From Lentisphaeria bacterium (GTDB lineage: Bacteria > Verrucomicrobiota > Lentisphaeria > Oligosphaerales > Oligosphaeraceae), in assembly GCA_024405215.1 (NCBI GenBank), contig JAKSPB010000017.1, positions 15 through 64,014 of the forward strand: DNA of 64,000 nt, in the 5' to 3' direction. A program made the position numbers and the translations under genes. Positions 50,262 to 58,228 of the stretch are shown here, piece after piece; within the stretch, counting starts at the first letter, position 1, and every line of letters starts with the position of its first letter. The notes under the pieces are model-generated. The model made no database searches, had not been told where the DNA came from, and saw only the letters and a program-made list of their open reading frames with translations.

Positions 50262-50702
50262 GAGGGAAAAGGGAGATACGATAGGGGATGGTTCACAAAG
50301 GGGGGCTTGAACCGGAAATGAACATTATCGGCGTCCAATCCGGCGATTCTGCATCGTCGCCAGCCTGGGCGGATAAGTGGAGGATTAGGATTATGGAATC
50401 CCGTTCTGAATGCGGGGGACGAAAGAGACTTTTGCAATTGCCTCAAGCGGGGAAAGCTTATGGTCGGGATGTAATGTAAACCAACATTCGCGAAGTTCCG
50501 ACATCCCGGAAGACTTCCTGTCGTTTCGGATGCCGCGGTGATGGGCTTGCTTGTGCGCCGCGGACAATCCACTGGCGGGAGAAACGCGTATGGCAATGAT
50601 TTTGACGCCGTTTCTTTCAACCTGGCCGTTTATGTCGTGGGGCGGTTGTGAAAATAACCTGTGATTTTGAATCTACAGCGACAAGTACTTGCATTTGTGG
50701 GT

Positions 50703-50729
50703 GAAAAGACAGGGAGAATGCCTGTCCCA
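50703..50729 (-). terminator. Intrinsic terminator after the GNAT gene
   Basis: The minus strand reads gggacagg-cattctc-cctgtc followed by ttttcac. Stems are at 50708-50713 and 50721-50726. Confidence 0.55.
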
Positions 50730-50737
50730 AAGGAAAG

Positions 50738-51706
50738 TCATTCTCCGTTTGTCTTTTTGAAGCGTGGTCCCTCGACGCCCATGCCGCATGGAATGAAATC
50801 AAGTCTTGCCAAGATTTTCTGAGAGGCGATATTGCCAGGGGCTGTTTCCGCGTCAACCGTCGTGACCTCGGAAAAGGAAAACGCCCATTGAATGACGGTT
50901 CGGACGGCTTCCGTCATGTAGCCGTGCCCTTCAAAGCCTGGTTCCAGTCCATAGCCGATTTCGACTGCGCCATCCACGGCAGGTCCTCTGAAGCCAAGTT
51001 CGCCGATGATTTCCGTCGGTTTGTCCGCCAACGAGATTTTCCATGGCGCATACCAGACGCGGTGCTCAGGTTCTTTGAGACAGGCGTCCATCATTTCCTG
51101 AAATGCCTGACGCAGTTCTGGAACTTCCTGCTTCCGGATAGTTTCCTGCAGTTCATCCAGTTGCATTGGCGCAATGATCAGGCGTTCGGATTTCAGAGAA
51201 AATGAATCCTGTTCGTGCACATACATTCTTGACGGCTTCTCTGCTCCATCTCCCCATACCAGGCAATGGAATTTCCAACCATGGCGTTCGTAAAAGCCCG
51301 TATGGTCTGTAAGGAGGTAAAGCGTATCAACTCCATGTGAATGCATATCTTCGCAGACAAGGTCGAGCAGTTTTCCTGCGATGCCGCGGCTGCGGTACTC
51401 GGGTTCGGTATAGACGGCGCAGACATTCGGCCTCAGATCCTTTCGTTCATGGAAGTCATTTGCAATGACGCCCATTCCAGCCACGATTCTGCCGTTTTCC
51501 AGACAGACATACCAGCTTGGAACAATTGCGGCAAATGAACTCTCAATGCTCTCCAGATAGGATTCCAATGGCACATCCCATTTGGAGGCAAACCATTCTG
51601 CCGCCTTTCCCTTCAACTCTCTGCGTTGGGAAAGCTTGACGAATTCACAGGACATGGTATTCATTTCTTCTTGAACGTAACGGGAGGATATGACGTTTGC
51701 ATTCAT
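50738..51706 (-). CDS. Tandem-domain GNAT family N-acyltransferase
   Basis: First GNAT domain VCAVYTEPEYRSRGIAGKLLDLV...FYERHGWKF. Second, RimJ/RimL-like domain VEIGYGLEPGFEGHGYMTEAVRTVIQWAF...NIASQKILARLDF. An alternative start is at 51664. Confidence 0.8.
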   Translation of the reverse strand: MNANVISSRYVQEEMNTMSCEFVKLSQRRELKGKAAEWFASKWDVPLESYLESIESSFAAIVPSWYVCLENGRIVAGMGVIANDFHERKDLRPNVCAVYTEPEYRSRGIAGKLLDLVCEDMHSHGVDTLYLLTDHTGFYERHGWKFHCLVWGDGAEKPSRMYVHEQDSFSLKSERLIIAPMQLDELQETIRKQEVPELRQAFQEMMDACLKEPEHRVWYAPWKISLADKPTEIIGELGFRGPAVDGAVEIGYGLEPGFEGHGYMTEAVRTVIQWAFSFSEVTTVDAETAPGNIASQKILARLDFIPCGMGVEGPRFKKTNGE

Positions 51707-51857
51707 TTGCTTGCCTGCGTCGAATTCCGCCCGTTTTCAGCGACGGAAAGCCTCCAGGTCCTCTTCGTGGCGGCAGGACAAGCTGGCATCGGGAGACAAT
51801 CAGTCGCTGGTTCATTCCTGCAGGAGCATATTCCACCTGCGAGGCATCGGCGGCCTA

Positions 51858-53012
51858 TCATTCCTTCAGTTTTGCGGAGACTTCCTTGAAGATGTCGATC
51901 ATTTTTTCTTCATAGATGACATCCAGCACCGGCGGCTCGAAATTCAGCACCGCTTCGTATTCCTGGCTGGCATCATTGATCAGCTGGAGGATTCCCGTGC
52001 CGGTCTTGACGGTATTGTAGGTATTCTGGGCTACCGCGATTTTGCTTGCGACCTTTTCCTGGGATTGGGCCAGTTCGTCCTTTTTCGTCAGCAGAATGCG
52101 ATTGCAGGTGTCTGCGACGCGGATAGTATTGTCGTTGATGCGGATGTTCGCCTCAAGTCCGGCGCGCTCATTGGGATTGGTCTTGATCAGTTGCTGGGCC
52201 TCCTCCTGGTTCTTGACAGCCTGTGCGCGCAGCTTCTGCAATTTCGGCAGATAGTTTTTGGAGATGTTGTCCAAAGCGACCTCATGTGCTTCATTCCATG
52301 CCATCAGCAGCACAAGATAGATGCCGGTATATTGTTCGATCTGCGCTCCGTTGCCAGAACCGCCGCGTTCAAGTTGCTGCTTGATGGCAAACTGAATCTG
52401 CTTGAGGATATTGGCGGTGTTGATAAGCTGAAGGACATTTTCGCCCTCGGCGGAAACGATGAGGTAATCCAAGTACTTCTCGTCGATGATTTCGCCGTAG
52501 CGGTTCAGATCTCTTCGCAGTTCAATTGCTTTGGTCTTGATTGCGCGTTCGTATTCCCCGTTGCGTTGAGTGAGTTCGGCGATTTTCTTGTCGCATTTGT
52601 CGCGAGTCATGGCGAAGGGATTCGATGAGTCGTTGGGATAGCCAAGACGGTTGGCGTTCAAATTGTCGATTTCCGTCTGATTAGCGGCTGTCTTGTTCTG
52701 CAAATCCTTGATTTCATTGAACTTCTGCAATCCGGCATCAGAGGCGATGATTTCAAAGGCCTTTCTTGCAAAGGATTTTGTGTGGCGCTTGAAGAAGGTC
52801 TCGTCGTGGCCGGCAACGACATCAGGGAACTCCTGACGCAAATTCGAGAGTTTCTGCCAGCATTTTCCAAAGGCATCGCCGTCGATATCGTAGGCGAGTC
52901 GTGCCTCCGGAGCAGCGGGGGCAACCGGAGTGGCCGCATTGACGGAATCTGTGAGCATGCAGCCGTTCATGAGTAATCCGGCAATGGTCAAAAGGCAAAG
53001 AAGTTTTTTCAT
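51858..53012 (-). CDS. Exported (possibly lipid-anchored) coiled-coil protein of unknown function
   Basis: Signal peptide MKKLLCLLTIAGLLMNGC. The rest is Lys/Glu/Gln-rich with heptad-like stretches. No recognisable catalytic motif. A+T-richer than the window average. Confidence 0.6.
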   Translation of the reverse strand: MKKLLCLLTIAGLLMNGCMLTDSVNAATPVAPAAPEARLAYDIDGDAFGKCWQKLSNLRQEFPDVVAGHDETFFKRHTKSFARKAFEIIASDAGLQKFNEIKDLQNKTAANQTEIDNLNANRLGYPNDSSNPFAMTRDKCDKKIAELTQRNGEYERAIKTKAIELRRDLNRYGEIIDEKYLDYLIVSAEGENVLQLINTANILKQIQFAIKQQLERGGSGNGAQIEQYTGIYLVLLMAWNEAHEVALDNISKNYLPKLQKLRAQAVKNQEEAQQLIKTNPNERAGLEANIRINDNTIRVADTCNRILLTKKDELAQSQEKVASKIAVAQNTYNTVKTGTGILQLINDASQEYEAVLNFEPPVLDVIYEEKMIDIFKEVSAKLKE

Positions 53013-53526
53013 GGTGGCAGATGTATGGGAAGTGTATTGTAGAAATCAACCAGGGGAGGAATACGATATTCCGTTGGAAAAACATTCGCGGAAGTTTTGC
53101 ATCGGTTTGCCTGGCGGAATTCTTGGCGGCAAATCGTCAGGTTGCCATAGGGAGTGCAAATAATTTCCTGGAAGTCGTTCATTCCGATCGCAACGGAACT
53201 GTCACGGGCATAAAATAATCTGCGAATCAAATTCTTGCCACGGCAAGTCCTGCTCTTTATGGATGGTTCGGAAAATGTTCGGCGAGATAGAAGGCTCCCG
53301 TGCACATGCGCAATATGCTTATGTCATTTTTGCATCAACGACTTACATGGCGATTCCAGGAAATGTCCTTTCATATGCCCCGGCAGCCGTTGTAGAAATT
53401 ATGCAGAGTCCTGTATCTTTTCCCTTCCTGGCAAAGGGGCACGTTTCCGGACATGCTGGAACTATCTGCGACACATTTCCAGAAAAGCTTTGCAGCCTCC
53501 ATGCCTCCGTCCATCCGTTTTGCCAT

Positions 53527-56037
53527 TCATTTTGCCTCCTGCATTGAAAGCAATGCCTCTTGCACTTGTTCTGCTGTATTTTTGCACAGTTGTCTCTCTT
53601 CTGTCCTGCCGTCCGGGACCAAAGGAGCAAGGAAGCGGACGGCCACTTTTTTTCCGAACCTTGGTATTTTCGCCCACCTTGGCAGAACATCGTAGGCGCC
53701 CCGGATGGCGACGGGGACGACGGGAACGCCCGTTTTAAGAGCCAGTTGCGCAAACATCGGGCGGAACTCGCCGAGGCTTCCGTCCATGGTGCGGGTTCCT
53801 TCGGGGAAAATGACGACGGACTTGCCAGCGCGCAGAATCGCCTCCAGCTGTTCCAGCGACTGATGGAGATTGCCGTTGATTTCCATGGGGATCAAATTAT
53901 GCCGTGCGGCGAACCAGCGTTTGAAAGTGCCGTCGAAGTATTTTGAAATGGCAAAGAAATAGGTATTCCTGAACTGGCTGCCGGTCATTGCGCTGGCAAG
54001 GTAGAAGCCGTCAAGCAGGCTTTCGTGATTCGGGGCGAAGATGCAAGGCTTTGCGAGAATGTTCTCGGTTCCCTCAATGACCAGCCGTGAAAGAATGCGC
54101 ATGCCTGCCGAAATGATCAAGCGCATTCCGCCGTGAGTCCAGGCTGCGGAATGACAGGGAACTGCCCGTGCGGTATGTTGTTGATAGCCTGTGTCTCCGT
54201 GCATGGAATCCAATGCTTCAGCAAGCAAGCGCCCCGTGGGATATTTGGCGAGCAGGCTCATGTCTATTTCCCTGCCAAGTTCTTTGCCCAATGCAGAGGC
54301 AGTCGCCACCTTGCCCAGGGAATCCAGATTCAGTTCCAGTTCGAAATGCTCGTCAGGGCCGACTGCGGGGCGTCCGATGACTTCCGCCAGGCATTGGCAG
54401 ATTTTCCTTTCAAGCGTAGAGGAGAAAACGACTTGTTTCTGTTCGACGCGTCTGTCCTTTTCCTGCCCCTGCAATCCGTTTTGCAGGAACTGGCGTATGA
54501 CATGCCGCCGAAGTTTGCCGAGACGCGTGCGCGGAAGCGGCCGGTCGCTCAATTCCAGCCGCGCGATTCGCTTATAGGACGGAACAGCTTCGTTATAGGG
54601 TTCGATGACCTTGTCCATGAATGTCTGCTTGATGTTGAGCACCCCGCGGGCGGCCAGGGCCTCCGTGTCCGGAACGAGAATGGCGACAAGATGATGATTG
54701 TCGTCGGAGACCGCGCACTCGGTGAACATCCCGTCTGCATATTCCATTAGCTTCTGCTCCAGCTCGGCCGGATTGATGTTCTTGCCGTTGCCGAGGATGA
54801 TCAGCTCCTTGCTGCGCCCGGTAAGGAACAGAAAACCGTCCTTGTCCACATATCCGAGATCTCCAGTATGCAGCCAGCCCTCCGAATCGATGATTTGCGC
54901 AGTTTCCTCCGGACGGTTGTAGTACCCCTTCATGACGTTTTTGCCCCGGACCAGAACCTCGCCGTTCTGTATGCGGATTTCATTGCAGGGGATGGGCTTT
55001 CCCGGAGAACCTGGCTTGTGGCGGTCAGGCGGCGTGAAGGAAATCATGGGAGCTGTCTCCGTCATGCCGTATCCCTCCAGCAGATGGAAGCCCATGGCAT
55101 AGAAATCGCGTGTGACCTGGGGATCTGCCGCTGCGCCTCCCGATGCGATGTATCGGATATGCCCGCCAAAGGCCTCCTGTATCTTTTTGAACAGGAACCT
55201 GGAAAAACGAAGCGAACCGATGGCTGCCGACAGGGACAGCATGAAACGTCCGAAGCGCACATCCTGAATCTTCTTCAGCATGGAATTGCGGAAGATTTCA
55301 AGCAGGCGCGGAACACCGATGATGAACGTGCACTGGTTTTGACGAAGAGCGGAAATGATGGCGTTGCCGGTCAGGCTTGAAGCGAAGACCGCCGTTGCCC
55401 CGATGGTCATGGGCATGACAAGGCTTCCCATCAGCGGATAGGAATGATGAAGCGGCAATGCCACAAGCACTTTGTCCTCGGGGATGAAGACTTCTGTCTG
55501 AACCGTGCAGGCTTCCGCGTTTGCCCTCAGATTGCCGAAGGTCAGCATAACACCCTTGGGGGTGCCTGTCGTGCCGGACGTGTAGATGATCAATGCCGTG
55601 TCTTCATCTGGGGATTCTTCAGAGAATGGGAATGGAAAAGCCTCCGCAGGGGGCTCGAGAAAATGCCGTTGCTGCTCAAGAATCAGAAACGACGGCGATG
55701 CAGTTTCAGTTAAATTGGTCGCCTCCTGCACTTTTGCCTCGGAGGCGGCGTCCGTAAAGACCGCAATTGGAGAACAATCCTGAAAGATATACGCAATTTC
55801 CTCTGACGTAGACATATAGTCGATAGGAACCGCGACAAGCCCCGCATGCCAGACGGCATAGAGGGCAAGAACCCATTCCGGCGAATTGGCACCGATGACG
55901 GCTATGCGTTCACCCGGAGCATGCTCTTTGCGCAGCGCGTCGCCAAGAGAAGATATGCCATGCAGCAGATTTTTGTAGTGAATGCGCCTGTCATTACACA
56001 CCAGGGCGGTCTTGTCAAAATACTTCAGCCATTTCAT
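53527..56037 (-). CDS. Tri-domain fusion: acyl-AMP ligase (adenylation) - phosphopantetheine carrier - PlsC-type lysophospholipid acyltransferase
   Basis: IYTSGTTGTPKGVMLT and GWLHTGDLGYVDKDGFLFLTGRSKELI (AMP-binding). ELELNLDSLGKVA (carrier Ser). FAPNHESLLDG (HX4D) and VIFPEGTRT (LPLAT blocks). RBS aggagac lies before the ATG. Confidence 0.85.
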   Translation of the reverse strand: MKWLKYFDKTALVCNDRRIHYKNLLHGISSLGDALRKEHAPGERIAVIGANSPEWVLALYAVWHAGLVAVPIDYMSTSEEIAYIFQDCSPIAVFTDAASEAKVQEATNLTETASPSFLILEQQRHFLEPPAEAFPFPFSEESPDEDTALIIYTSGTTGTPKGVMLTFGNLRANAEACTVQTEVFIPEDKVLVALPLHHSYPLMGSLVMPMTIGATAVFASSLTGNAIISALRQNQCTFIIGVPRLLEIFRNSMLKKIQDVRFGRFMLSLSAAIGSLRFSRFLFKKIQEAFGGHIRYIASGGAAADPQVTRDFYAMGFHLLEGYGMTETAPMISFTPPDRHKPGSPGKPIPCNEIRIQNGEVLVRGKNVMKGYYNRPEETAQIIDSEGWLHTGDLGYVDKDGFLFLTGRSKELIILGNGKNINPAELEQKLMEYADGMFTECAVSDDNHHLVAILVPDTEALAARGVLNIKQTFMDKVIEPYNEAVPSYKRIARLELSDRPLPRTRLGKLRRHVIRQFLQNGLQGQEKDRRVEQKQVVFSSTLERKICQCLAEVIGRPAVGPDEHFELELNLDSLGKVATASALGKELGREIDMSLLAKYPTGRLLAEALDSMHGDTGYQQHTARAVPCHSAAWTHGGMRLIISAGMRILSRLVIEGTENILAKPCIFAPNHESLLDGFYLASAMTGSQFRNTYFFAISKYFDGTFKRWFAARHNLIPMEINGNLHQSLEQLEAILRAGKSVVIFPEGTRTMDGSLGEFRPMFAQLALKTGVPVVPVAIRGAYDVLPRWAKIPRFGKKVAVRFLAPLVPDGRTEERQLCKNTAEQVQEALLSMQEAK

Positions 56038-56091
56038 TCTTGAAAGTCTCCTGTCTGCTTAGGGTGCGGGATTGACGGAATAATTTTTCAT

Positions 56092-56107
56092 AGCAAATTC
56101 TGTTCCA
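56092..56107 (-). promoter_or_regulatory. Candidate sigma-54 (-24/-12) promoter for the fusion gene
   Basis: The minus strand reads TGGAAC-agaat-TTGCT. The consensus is TGGCAC-N5-TTGCW, so the GG and GC dinucleotides are correctly spaced with one mismatch. It sits about 55 nt upstream of the ATG at 56037, with an enhancer-binding-protein (EBP) gene adjacent and divergent. Confidence 0.55.
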
Positions 56108-56211
56108 TTTTCATTTCTGGGGAAAATCCGTGGACGAAGTGGAAAAATGAGCATAAATGTATATATTAAACGAGCAAAAATCAACACCATTTGCAGGATA
56201 AGGAATGATAT

Positions 56212-57720
56212 ATGTTTACTGATGCAGAGCGAAGCCAAATCAGGCTTATTGGTGATCTGATATACACCAATCCGTTTGGTGAACGTCGGCAGGAGATAGA
56301 GCATCGGCTTCTCGGCAGGAAGCATATCCAGCGGTTCCGTGTCTGGCATAGTTTGGACGGTGATTTCTCCACCAACCTCAACCTGCCGGAATTGGAAAAA
56401 CTTTGCGGAAGGCTGGTGGAGCGCGGTCTGTCTTTTCTAAAGGGAGAGGGGTTGCCTGTCCAGGATGATGTCCTCACGGAGTGGGATCTGCTGGTCATCT
56501 ACTGGCTGTTTTCCCGCTACAGCGCCAGCATGAGCGGAAATATCTATCTTCCAAGCGGCAGCGAGGAGGCCAGCGCGAAACTCTATGGGAATTTCCTGGA
56601 TGACTACAATAATCTGGTTCAGAACATACGGCGCGGGCGTCCTTCCGCCTATCAGCCGGAAAAGATCTTCGCCATGTTCCACCAGGTTCACCGGGCGTTC
56701 AACTATATCTTCGACTATATTGGCGGCGGAACCGAAGCTGCGGCGCGTCTTAGGTGCGCCATCTGGGAATCCATATTCTCCCACGATATGAACCGCTATT
56801 ACCGCCAGCTTCATTCGAAGATGAACGGCATCACGACGCTGATTACCGGCGAATCTGGAACCGGAAAGGAACTTGCCGCACAGGCAATTGCCTATTCGCA
56901 ATACATTCCGTTCGACGGGGGAAAACAACGTTTCGCGCGGTCTTACAGAGATTGTTTTCGCGCTGTCCAGCTCTCCGCGCTGCCGCCGACCCTGATAGAA
57001 TCAGAGCTGTTCGGCCATGTCCGCGGCGCTTTCACGAACGCCATTCACGACAGGAAGGGATGCTTTGAAAACTGTCTGGAGGGTATGGCCGTTTTTTTGG
57101 ATGAAATCGGCGATATTTCTCTCGAAGTGCAAGTCAAACTTCTAAGGCTGCTACAGACCAGGCAGTTCTGCCGCATAGGTGATTCCGAACCACGTGAATT
57201 CAGTGGCAAGGTGATTGCCGCCACCAATGCCGATCTCTCTGAAAAATGCGCGGATGGGCAGTTCCGTCAGGATTTTCTCTTCCGTATCTGTTCGGATGTC
57301 ATACGGACATCTCCCCTCAGAACGCTTCTGGACGGACGCGAAGAGGAACTGCGACAGATGGTTCTGATTCTCTCCAGGCGTCTCCTTGACGCACAGGAAG
57401 CCGTTTCCTTCGCACAGGAAAGTTCCGACTGGATCATAGCTCATCTGGGCGTGGACTACACTTGGCCTGGCAACGTTCGCGAACTGGAACAGTGCCTGCG
57501 GAATCTTCTTTTGCGCGGCAGCTATTCGCCGCTGGTCAAAGAGGAGGCTGATAACGACGATATCGGCACGAGGATGATGAAAAGCGGCTGTACCTTGGAT
57601 GAGTTGACGCACCGCTACGTTAATGCGCTCTATCAAAGGGAGGGTTCCGTCGCCGGAGTGGCGCGCCAATCCGGCATGGACCGCCGCACCATCAGAAAAC
57701 TCCTTGACAGAGAAAAGTAA
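56212..57720 (+). CDS. Sigma-54-dependent transcriptional activator (enhancer-binding protein, EBP) with uncharacterised N-terminal domain and no receiver domain
   Basis: Walker A GESGTGKELAAQAIA, ESELFGHVRGAFTNA (a GAFTGA-loop variant), Walker B VFLDEIGD, RQDFLFRI, and a C-terminal Fis-type HTH VAGVARQSGMDRRTIRKLL. Confidence 0.85.
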   Translation: MFTDAERSQIRLIGDLIYTNPFGERRQEIEHRLLGRKHIQRFRVWHSLDGDFSTNLNLPELEKLCGRLVERGLSFLKGEGLPVQDDVLTEWDLLVIYWLFSRYSASMSGNIYLPSGSEEASAKLYGNFLDDYNNLVQNIRRGRPSAYQPEKIFAMFHQVHRAFNYIFDYIGGGTEAAARLRCAIWESIFSHDMNRYYRQLHSKMNGITTLITGESGTGKELAAQAIAYSQYIPFDGGKQRFARSYRDCFRAVQLSALPPTLIESELFGHVRGAFTNAIHDRKGCFENCLEGMAVFLDEIGDISLEVQVKLLRLLQTRQFCRIGDSEPREFSGKVIAATNADLSEKCADGQFRQDFLFRICSDVIRTSPLRTLLDGREEELRQMVLILSRRLLDAQEAVSFAQESSDWIIAHLGVDYTWPGNVRELEQCLRNLLLRGSYSPLVKEEADNDDIGTRMMKSGCTLDELTHRYVNALYQREGSVAGVARQSGMDRRTIRKLLDREK

Positions 57721-57881
57721 AGGCACGGGAACACCAGGAGATTCCTGGAACGTTTTCAGAGATTTCCAACGGGTATCTCTTGATGGCTTTTGTGCTCAAA
57801 GCCTACTTTGTAATCTGCCGTCTTGCTCCCCTATGTTGGTGTGTCACCGCCAGATTACAAAAAGTCGGCAAAAATGGGGCT

Positions 57882-57895
57882 GTGTCACGTGACAC
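57882..57895. promoter_or_regulatory. Perfect 14-bp palindrome GTGTCACGTGACAC, with an extra GTGTCAC half-site at 57841-57847
   Basis: Read directly. It lies in the 508-bp non-coding gap downstream of both convergent genes. The extra half-site sits in the loop of an 11-bp inverted repeat tttgtaatctg/cagattacaaa (57807-57861). Confidence 0.4.
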
Positions 57896-58228
57896 CACAG
57901 ACTTTTGGTGTTTTTTCATCCTCTGTCGTCCGGATTTAAGGCATTTTACTCACAAACGAATATTTGGACCAGACGGGGGGGGCGCAGCGCGGAGCGTCTG
58001 CAAGGGCAAAGTGCTTTTTGTGGCAGGCGTGACGCTGAAATCCCCGGTTTTCGTTTAATGACGAAATGGCTGAACGGCCTGGTAGCCTATAACATCTAAG
58101 TCTTTATCATCCTTCGCTCTTTTCGTGCCTTTGCCCCGGTCTGCTCCTTGCATAGCGACTATGCGCGGTCGCTGGCCGAAAAAGGCTCGAGAATACCTGT
58201 CGTCTGGATGACTTTCAGGCGTTGCAGA

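Follow-up and report, generated by a model that had tools for sequence, protein, structure and literature searches.

A reductase-less ElbD-like acyltransferase fusion with a candidate sigma-54 promoter and a divergently encoded activator in a gut-type Victivallales bacterium

The sequence analyzed here (the window) is a 64,000-nucleotide stretch of contig JAKSPB010000017.1 in GenBank assembly GCA_024405215.1, which we handle as contig C9 of a genome (G000) of 2.98 Mb in 82 contigs that is 96.8% complete. The named database relatives of the proteins encoded in the window belong to Victivallales and Lentisphaeria, and the host is a gut-type Victivallales bacterium of an anaerobic, host-associated lineage. 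The locus of interest comprises a gene for an 836-amino-acid (836-aa) enzyme that joins three domains in one polypeptide (the fusion), a candidate sigma-54 promoter in front of it, and a divergent gene for a sigma-54 enhancer-binding protein (the activator). The enzyme gene has the following features.

53527..56037, minus strand: gene for the 836-aa tri-domain enzyme, a reductase-less ElbD-like protein with the domain order adenylation, carrier, LPLAT (A-carrier-LPLAT), from the open reading frame, Pfam and full-length homologues
54496..56022, minus strand: acyl-AMP ligase (adenylate-forming) domain, residues 6-514, with YTSGTTGxPKG and the A10 lysine K508 (PF00501, PF23562)
54211..54408, minus strand: in-cis phosphopantetheine carrier, residues 544-609, with the S573 codon at 54319-54321 (PF00550, 36 bits)
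53704..54084, minus strand: PlsC/LPLAT-type acyltransferase, residues 652-778, with NH671xxxxD676 and F744-P-E-G-x-R749 (PF01553, 88.1 bits)
56048..56051, minus strand: ribosome-binding site GGAG, 10 nucleotides (nt) 5' of the fusion ATG, from reading the sequence

In addition to the carrier and acyltransferase domains, Pfam places an AMP-binding domain at residues 6-373 (254.7 bits) and an AMP-binding_C_3 domain (PF23562) at residues 412-514. The motifs IYTSGTTGTPKG, NLDSLG, NHESLLDG and FPEGTRT, from which an initial annotation of this DNA had described a self-contained activate-load-transfer enzyme, are all found in the 836-aa open reading frame, and that three-domain anatomy stands. An alignment with 17 homologues from Lentisphaerota, Bacteroidota, Ignavibacteria, Spirochaetes and Desulfobulbus showed Y152-G158, K161, K508, D572-S573-L574, N670-H671, D676, F744-G747 and R749 to be invariant, and this conservation of catalytic residues suggests that all three domains are active; the genome also carries a gene for an AcpS-type phosphopantetheinyl transferase. 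The best PDB sequence matches of the adenylation domain are fatty-acyl-CoA synthases and MenE. Both PlsC/AGPAT motifs, HX4D and FPEGTR, are present in the fusion (as NHESLLD and FPEGTRT), which scores 63-63.8 bits against the PlsC/AGPAT model TIGR00530, below its cut-off of 102.95; the top NCBIfam match of the acyltransferase domain is the Aas-type model NF006386, and its best family matches are of the Aas and AGPAT types.

Full-length collinear homologues with PF00501, PF00550 and PF01553 (39-69% identity, 96-100% coverage) occur in many phyla and are named in databases only "AMP-binding protein" or "long-chain acyl-CoA synthetase." With the carrier and acyltransferase module as query, a search of 1.84 billion database representatives yielded 92 clusters at E < 1e-30, and the majority of its 150 top matches were proteins of 810-850 aa with the module at residues 530-820. 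The domain scan and survey proposed in the initial annotation thereby confirmed the domains and revealed that their order is abundant across phyla: the reductase-less family, of about 820 aa, is common in Lentisphaerota, Opitutales, Bacteroidota, Ignavibacteria, Spirochaetes and Desulfobulbus. The idea that the locus is of an undescribed type found no support, since A-carrier-LPLAT is the core of ElbD. The Myxococcus xanthus protein consists of a FAR1-like reductase, an acyl-CoA-synthetase-like domain, an acyl carrier protein and an AGPAT-like acyltransferase, and "ElbD-like homologues," nearly all without the reductase, are described from anaerobes and further phyla with no accompanying lipid data (PMC9131029). 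The form of ElbD that lacks the reductase has been on record since 2014, and the architecture is not new.

The relationship to ElbD could be followed through sequence comparisons. In our scan of loci a single-protein query found nothing, and an alignment-based pattern scan was needed to reach loci of Myxococcales/Polyangiaceae; three Myxococcota loci (L035, L036 and L042) encode proteins with NAD_binding_4, Sterile, AMP-binding, PP-binding and Acyltransferase domains, followed by an epimerase gene, and their reductase domain scores 160-170 bits. By tblastn the fusion aligns with a Myxococcota protein of ElbD architecture over 815 columns at 29.7% identity (E = 1e-83), with residues 14-807 and all three domains covered. 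A maximum-likelihood tree separates the reductase-less clade (Lentisphaeria, Opitutales, Bacteroidota, Ignavibacteria, Spirochaetes and Desulfobulbus) from the reductase-bearing Myxococcota proteins with support of 100/100; the fusion is nested in Lentisphaeria, where a long branch (0.77) leads to the activator-linked subclade. No FAR1-like reductase (NAD_binding_4 plus Sterile) is present in the 836-aa protein, in which AMP-binding begins at residue 6, and no strong ElbD-type reductase was found in the genome, where NAD_binding_4 reaches at most 31 bits. The elb context (HAD-like ElbB, ElbC and the epimerase ElbE) was not found beside the fusion in the window's subclade. The protein is thus a reductase-less member of the ElbD superfamily and not ElbD itself. 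Two distant Lentisphaeria fusions (about 42% identity) are followed on their 3' side by a gene for a 3-beta-hydroxysteroid dehydrogenase/epimerase resembling ElbE (L025:10824-11924 and L026:7142-8209), an arrangement that recalls the elbD-elbE pair of Myxococcus.

The activator gene and the DNA between it and the fusion have the following features.

56212..57720, plus strand: gene for the 502-aa sigma-54 enhancer-binding protein, divergent from the fusion (PF00158, 150.9 bits, residues 197-360)
56212..56796, plus strand: all-helical N-terminal domain of the activator, residues 1-195, a presumed sensor (no family match, conserved, modelled)
57025..57042, plus strand: GAFTNA loop, residues 272-277, corresponding to the sigma-54 contact motif GAFTGA (alignment)
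57595..57708, plus strand: C-terminal three-helix region, putatively DNA-binding, residues ~462-499 (model helices 462-477, 480-487 and 491-499)
56092..56107, minus strand: candidate sigma-54 promoter, -24/-12 element TGGAACAGAATTTGCT, 54 nt 5' of the ATG (consensus and conservation)
56174..56182, minus strand: candidate activator site 1, GATTTTTGC, one of a conserved pair
56151..56160, minus strand: candidate activator site 2, ACATTTATGC, the other of the pair, 43 nt 5' of the -24 element
56140..56167, plus strand: sigma-70-like match TGGAAA-16-TATATT, which could serve the activator gene (consensus scan, 9/12 positions, weak)

The activator carries the Walker motifs GESGTGKE and FLDEIG, and the top Foldseek matches of its full-length model are FleQ, NtrC1 and ZraR, through the AAA+ domain only. 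No receiver domain was found in it, and residues 1-195 have no Pfam or NCBIfam match. AlphaFold predicts this N-terminal domain as an eight-helix bundle (pLDDT of 88.9 in the full-length model and 83.9 when modelled alone), in which N20, P21, F22, W45, Q158, R181 and W185 are invariant across phyla; with the domain alone, Foldseek returned nothing below E = 0.45 from the PDB, and the best match at that value, FasR (TM 0.21), was set aside as noise and gives no reason to suppose acyl-CoA binding. As modelled, the domain has a conserved, all-helical fold without a match among described families. The initial annotation had seen here a novel region of about 200 aa without a receiver; the absence of a described family bears this out, but the region is not unique to the locus, as Planctomycetota, Nitrospirota, Acidobacteriota and other phyla have full-length relatives of the activator at 40-45% identity. 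At the C terminus, D490, R492 and T493 are invariant (a DRRT motif) and three helices are modelled, with no Pfam HTH_8 match.

The consensus of the family in the sigma-54 contact loop is GAFTGA, and the window's protein and its closest homologue have GAFTNA, while one close homologue has GAFTTA; the window's loop keeps the F and T. The same change in NorR, G266N, still allows open complexes to form and makes the protein fully constitutive, bypassing the regulatory domain (PMC2941729), and GAFTNA is therefore no argument against activator function. By analogy with that variant, regulation may be relaxed in the window's lineage.

An activator orthologue (52-76% identity) is the divergent neighbor of the fusion gene in five genomes (G017, G009, G010, G011 and G008) and at the closest metagenomic locus (L132), lies 7-9 kb from it on the same contig in G004 and G005, and is found on other contigs in the fragmented assemblies G001 and G006. 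No member of the activator family was found in G014, G019, G020 and G022, and G015 gave no orthologue; the one family member in G012 is 35% identical and lies elsewhere in the genome. The distant relatives in other phyla have unrelated gene contexts and no linkage to a fusion gene, so the pairing of activator and fusion is lineage-specific, and the activator family as a whole controls varied targets. At two loci from Thermoanaerobaculia (L120:3811-8788 and L121:1155-6132), a relative of 41% identity lies directly upstream of a lanthipeptide-dehydratase-like gene and glycosyltransferase genes.

The presence of rpoN in the genome, which the initial annotation had named as a check, is clear (contig C67, 349.9 bits against a cut-off of 277), and the genome encodes four true sigma-54 activators. 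The candidate promoter TGGAACAGAATTTGCT has the correct GG-N10-GC spacing and one mismatch to TGGCAC-N5-TTGCW. A degenerate form of the -24/-12 pattern has 42 matches genome-wide, of which only about six are intergenic and well placed. It is position and conservation, and not rarity, that give the element weight: a -24/-12 element precedes the fusion at all 11 of the examined related loci whose genome has an orthologous activator and at none of the nine examined loci without one. At the activator-holding loci it takes the form TGGCAY-N5-TT[G/T]CT, 54-248 nt 5' of the fusion and in the right orientation, within DNA that has otherwise diverged, and at L132, the closest relative, it is a perfect TGGCACGCGCTTTGCT (TGGCAC-N5-TTGCT). 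Upstream of the fusion in G012, G014, G015, G019, G020, G022, two Opitutales and one Bacteroidales, the best match has no more than 6 of the 11 consensus positions. The proposal of a sigma-54 promoter with a divergent activator is therefore backed both by rpoN and by conservation across genomes.

Farther upstream lies a pair of AT-rich candidate sites of the form [G/A]CA-W5-6-TGC, often GCATTTTTTGC, each 9-11 base pairs (bp) long, 22 bp apart from start to start and about 45-85 nt upstream of the -24 element. The pair is also present in G009, G010, G011, G001, G005 and L132, and across the 2.98 Mb of the genome the strict motif has just 20 occurrences. Judged by this pattern, the two sites are likely to be bound by the activator. 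The -10 hexamer of the sigma-70-like match falls between them; promoter and terminator consensus scans of the region gave no more matches than shuffled sequence, and their results serve as weak annotation only. Elsewhere in the genome (G000:C12:55226-55360), a perfect sigma-54 element, TGGCACGTTCCTTGCT, lies 66 nt 5' of a gene for a 3038-aa secreted Laminin_G_3/TSP3 protein, and about 97 nt before it stand GCAAAAAATGC and a second site, GCATTTTGC, 20 nt apart. These sites share the motif found upstream of the fusion in relatives, so this gene may be a second target of the same activator. In G012 (L020/L027), which has no sigma-54 element before the fusion, six tandem TTGCTAA units (…TTGCTAATTGCTAATTGCTAA…) lie about 20-70 nt upstream of the fusion start and could form a slippage-prone promoter region.

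From these results we consider it moderately probable that the fusion is an Aas-like enzyme leading from free fatty acid to phospholipid, encoded in a single-gene sigma-54 unit with a divergent activator. The N-terminal domain would adenylate a fatty acid, most likely a long-chain one, and the acyl group would then pass to the phosphopantetheine arm on Ser573 of the enzyme's own carrier. The PlsC-type domain (His671/Asp676 and FPEGTR) would hand it on to lysophosphatidate or a lysophospholipid, as an acceptor of the glycerol-phosphate type, to give a self-contained Aas-like path from free fatty acid to membrane phospholipid. In the Victivallales subclade the fusion gene would be read as a single-gene unit from the sigma-54 promoter at 56092-56107, which would be opened by the divergently encoded activator, with its all-helical N-terminal domain presumably sensing a ligand, bound at the two AT-rich sites 22 bp apart and centred about 50 and about 72 nt upstream of the -24 GG. 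The substrate, the acceptor, the binding of the activator to these sites and the start of transcription are all predicted from sequence.

Several points weigh against this account, and they bear both on the chemistry and on the promoter. The adenylation domain lies under every NCBIfam cut-off, so a fatty acid is a predicted substrate; the acceptor is suggested by motifs that OlsA-type enzymes share; and with purified ElbD, for which adenylation and carrier loading have been shown in vitro, acyltransferase activity was not detected, nor has it ever been shown for any member of the superfamily (PMC9131029). A role in ether-lipid (alkylglycerol or plasmalogen) synthesis, as for ElbD in Myxococcus, would fit the homologous core of synthetase, carrier and acyltransferase as well as the ElbE-like gene after the fusion in L025 and L026. 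We nevertheless consider it improbable in view of the missing reductase domain, the genomic NAD_binding_4 maximum of 31 bits against 160-170, the lack of ElbB, ElbC or ElbE neighbors in the subclade and the 100/100 split of the reductase-less clade; moreover, no ether lipids were formed by Pontiella, another PVC bacterium that carries ElbD homologues (PMC11868695). Acylation of an ester lipid thus appears, from the gene and its context, to be the more likely role. The acceptor might also be something other than a glycerolipid, for example a protein, a precursor of lipid A, or a lipid of the polyketide or aryl-polyene-like kind, and the fusion an enzyme of specialized metabolism: the acceptor is not readable from sequence, and contig C45 of this genome has a cluster of the aryl-polyene type, a kind of cluster in which LPLAT domains occur. 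The fusion gene is solitary, however, with no biosynthetic neighbors in about 20 contexts examined, its FPEGTR motif is invariant, and the best matches of its acyltransferase domain are Aas-type and AGPAT models, which together leave a non-glycerolipid acceptor with a low probability. As to the promoter, TGGAACAGAATTTGCT alone is unremarkable, with one match (at most one mismatch) in the 64-kb window against 2.4 expected by chance; the window's own element, with TGGAAC, is off consensus, no other locus in the set has upstream sites as degenerate, and in most relatives in the genus the -12 part is TTTCT and not TTGCT, which is unusual. With distant members of the activator family adjoining unrelated genes, these features could be explained by a fortuitous match, a sigma-70 promoter driving the fusion and the activator controlling something else. 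Such a coincidence is hard to reconcile with an element that is present at 11 of 11 loci with the activator and 0 of 9 without, rightly oriented and 54-248 nt from the start in diverged DNA, and perfect in the closest relative, and we regard it as quite improbable.

The remaining alternative concerns the extent of the transcription unit and involves three features downstream of the fusion.

51858..53012, minus strand: gene for a 384-aa secreted or lipoprotein-like protein (coiled-coil), outside the unit (signal- or lipoprotein-like N terminus, no Pfam match)
50738..51706, minus strand: gene for a 322-aa double-GNAT protein, outside the unit (Acetyltransf_1 at residues 63-144, Acetyltransf_3 at residues 196-304)
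50705..50728, minus strand: terminator-like hairpin after the GNAT gene, GGGACAGG-loop-CCTGTC and then TTTT, from reading the sequence

The initial annotation had joined these genes to the fusion in a co-transcribed operon and, by analogy with OlsB/OlsA and GlsB/GlsA, had suggested that they make an aminolipid or an N-acyl amino acid. The exported-type 384-aa protein, the double GNAT and the hairpin are indeed there, the three genes share a strand, the only terminator-like hairpin follows the last of them, and in G009 the fusion is followed by a GNAT gene. That protein, however, is a different, single-domain GNAT without similarity to the window's, and the hairpin has just four T residues, falls below the threshold of the terminator scan and is not listed by it. 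Gaps of 514 nt after the fusion and 151 nt before the GNAT gene separate the three genes, and neither the coiled-coil nor the GNAT gene stands beside the fusion in the approximately 20 contexts. The coiled-coil protein has an orthologue of 82% identity in G002, a genome in which the fusion was not found, and another in G012 that lies on a separate contig; the double GNAT has only partial matches in relatives, none of them next to a fusion, and in L132 the gene after the fusion is convergent and encodes a hydrolase. The GNAT domains are of the Acetyltransf_1 and Acetyltransf_3 types, and Acetyltransf_5 (the OlsB/GlsB type) was not found in the genome with a search that was positive for the Bacteroides thetaiotaomicron control. 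As no linkage of N- and O-acyltransferase genes like that of OlsB/OlsA or GlsB/GlsA is conserved in relatives and Acetyltransf_5 was not found in the genome, the aminolipid logic is not supported, and we judge the three-gene operon to be very improbable. Going by these gene contexts, what is conserved as a unit comprises no more than the activator, the promoter and the fusion gene. The 514-nt gap contains a 98-codon open reading frame (53009-53305, minus strand) whose stop overlaps the start of the coiled-coil gene. Positions 50300-58200 have a G+C content of 49-56%, compared with 59-65% on either side; at about 51%, the coiled-coil and GNAT genes may be accessory. A recent transfer of the fusion and the activator, which the A+T-richer segment at 50.3-58.2 kb brought to mind, was rejected because their identity to the relatives in the genus is 50-58%, at or above that of RpoN (37-61%), and because the pairing is common to the subclade.

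If the fusion does acylate a glycerol-phosphate-type acceptor, as we favor, the inventory of acyltransferases in the genome becomes relevant. PlsX and PlsY were found, and PF01553 has three matches only, none of which reaches the AGPAT cut-off: the fusion, a 256-aa protein on contig C45 and an 885-aa protein on contig C8. The first of the latter belongs to an aryl-polyene-like lipid cluster (G000:C45:5300-9852) with a ketosynthase, an acyl carrier protein, the 256-aa LPLAT protein, a PaaK-like AMP-ligase and a further protein without a Pfam match that we take from its sequence to be LolA-like. The second (G000:C8:50171-52828) has the mirror order of acyltransferase, PP-binding and AMP-binding domains and is Aas-like with a built-in carrier (NF006386, 405 bits; PRK08043, 232 bits); matches of this type, with a weak PF01553 score in a frame of about 880-1000 aa, recur in nearly all of the family relatives searched. 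No stand-alone PlsC was found in the five best genomes of the genus (G004 and G008-G011; 94-95% complete), whose PF01553 matches are the fusion and the Aas-like protein only; other families of the order have stand-alone enzymes of 250-300 aa. The fusion may supply the PlsC function and so be the main lysophosphatidate acyltransferase, a suggestion made tentatively since a PlsC could escape notice in draft genomes or in a divergent acyltransferase family. In its full form the idea would be that the fusion has replaced stand-alone PlsC in the genus, so that free fatty acid from host or diet, activated in cis, supplies the second chain of the phospholipids under sigma-54 control with a new all-helical sensor, made constitutive in the window's lineage by GAFTNA; we regard this as speculative and rather unlikely.

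Reductase-less ElbD-like fusions are common in anaerobic and host-associated bacteria and are routinely counted as "ether-lipid potential" in metagenome surveys. The locus described here offers a clean single-gene regulated example, with a promoter, candidate operators and a dedicated activator, that could be rebuilt in Escherichia coli. Were the fusion the only lysophosphatidate acyltransferase of its clade, it would represent a new path from scavenged fatty acids to phosphatidic acid and would caution against the use of ElbD homologues as markers of ether lipids. The activator family is widespread and has an uncharacterized sensor domain, and identification of its ligand would be useful beyond this locus.

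Among known systems, E. coli Aas and the LplT-Aas fusions resemble the enzyme in joining fatty-acid activation to LPLAT-type transfer, in their case for the re-acylation of phospholipids. Aas has its acyltransferase at the N terminus and its acyl-ACP (acyl carrier protein) synthetase at the C terminus and uses free ACP as the carrier; the fusion has these domains the other way round and contains a carrier of its own, as the initial annotation had stated. For the activator, the closest parallel is with the NorR G266N/D "bypass" variants of E. coli (PMC2941729), the former of which has the same Asn at the second glycine of GAFTGA. In NorR this is a laboratory mutation that abolishes repression by the GAF domain, whereas here two close homologues carry it naturally, with a regulatory domain whose all-helical fold is unrelated. 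ElbD of M. xanthus (MXAN_1528), which serves ether-lipid synthesis (Lorenzen et al. 2014, as summarized in PMC9131029), shares with the fusion the collinear core of activating domain, carrier and AGPAT-like acyltransferase; the fusion differs in having no N-terminal FAR1-like reductase and no elbB, elbC or elbE neighbors, in belonging to a separate, well-supported clade, and in coming from an anaerobic, host-associated lineage with no ether-lipid evidence. Its own family is that of the FAR1-less ElbD-like homologues (PMC9131029), to which it is identical in domain order and catalytic residues at a common size of about 820 aa. What sets the fusion apart from the other FAR1-less members examined is sigma-54 control with a dedicated activator, which our comparisons indicate to be specific to the window's subclade.

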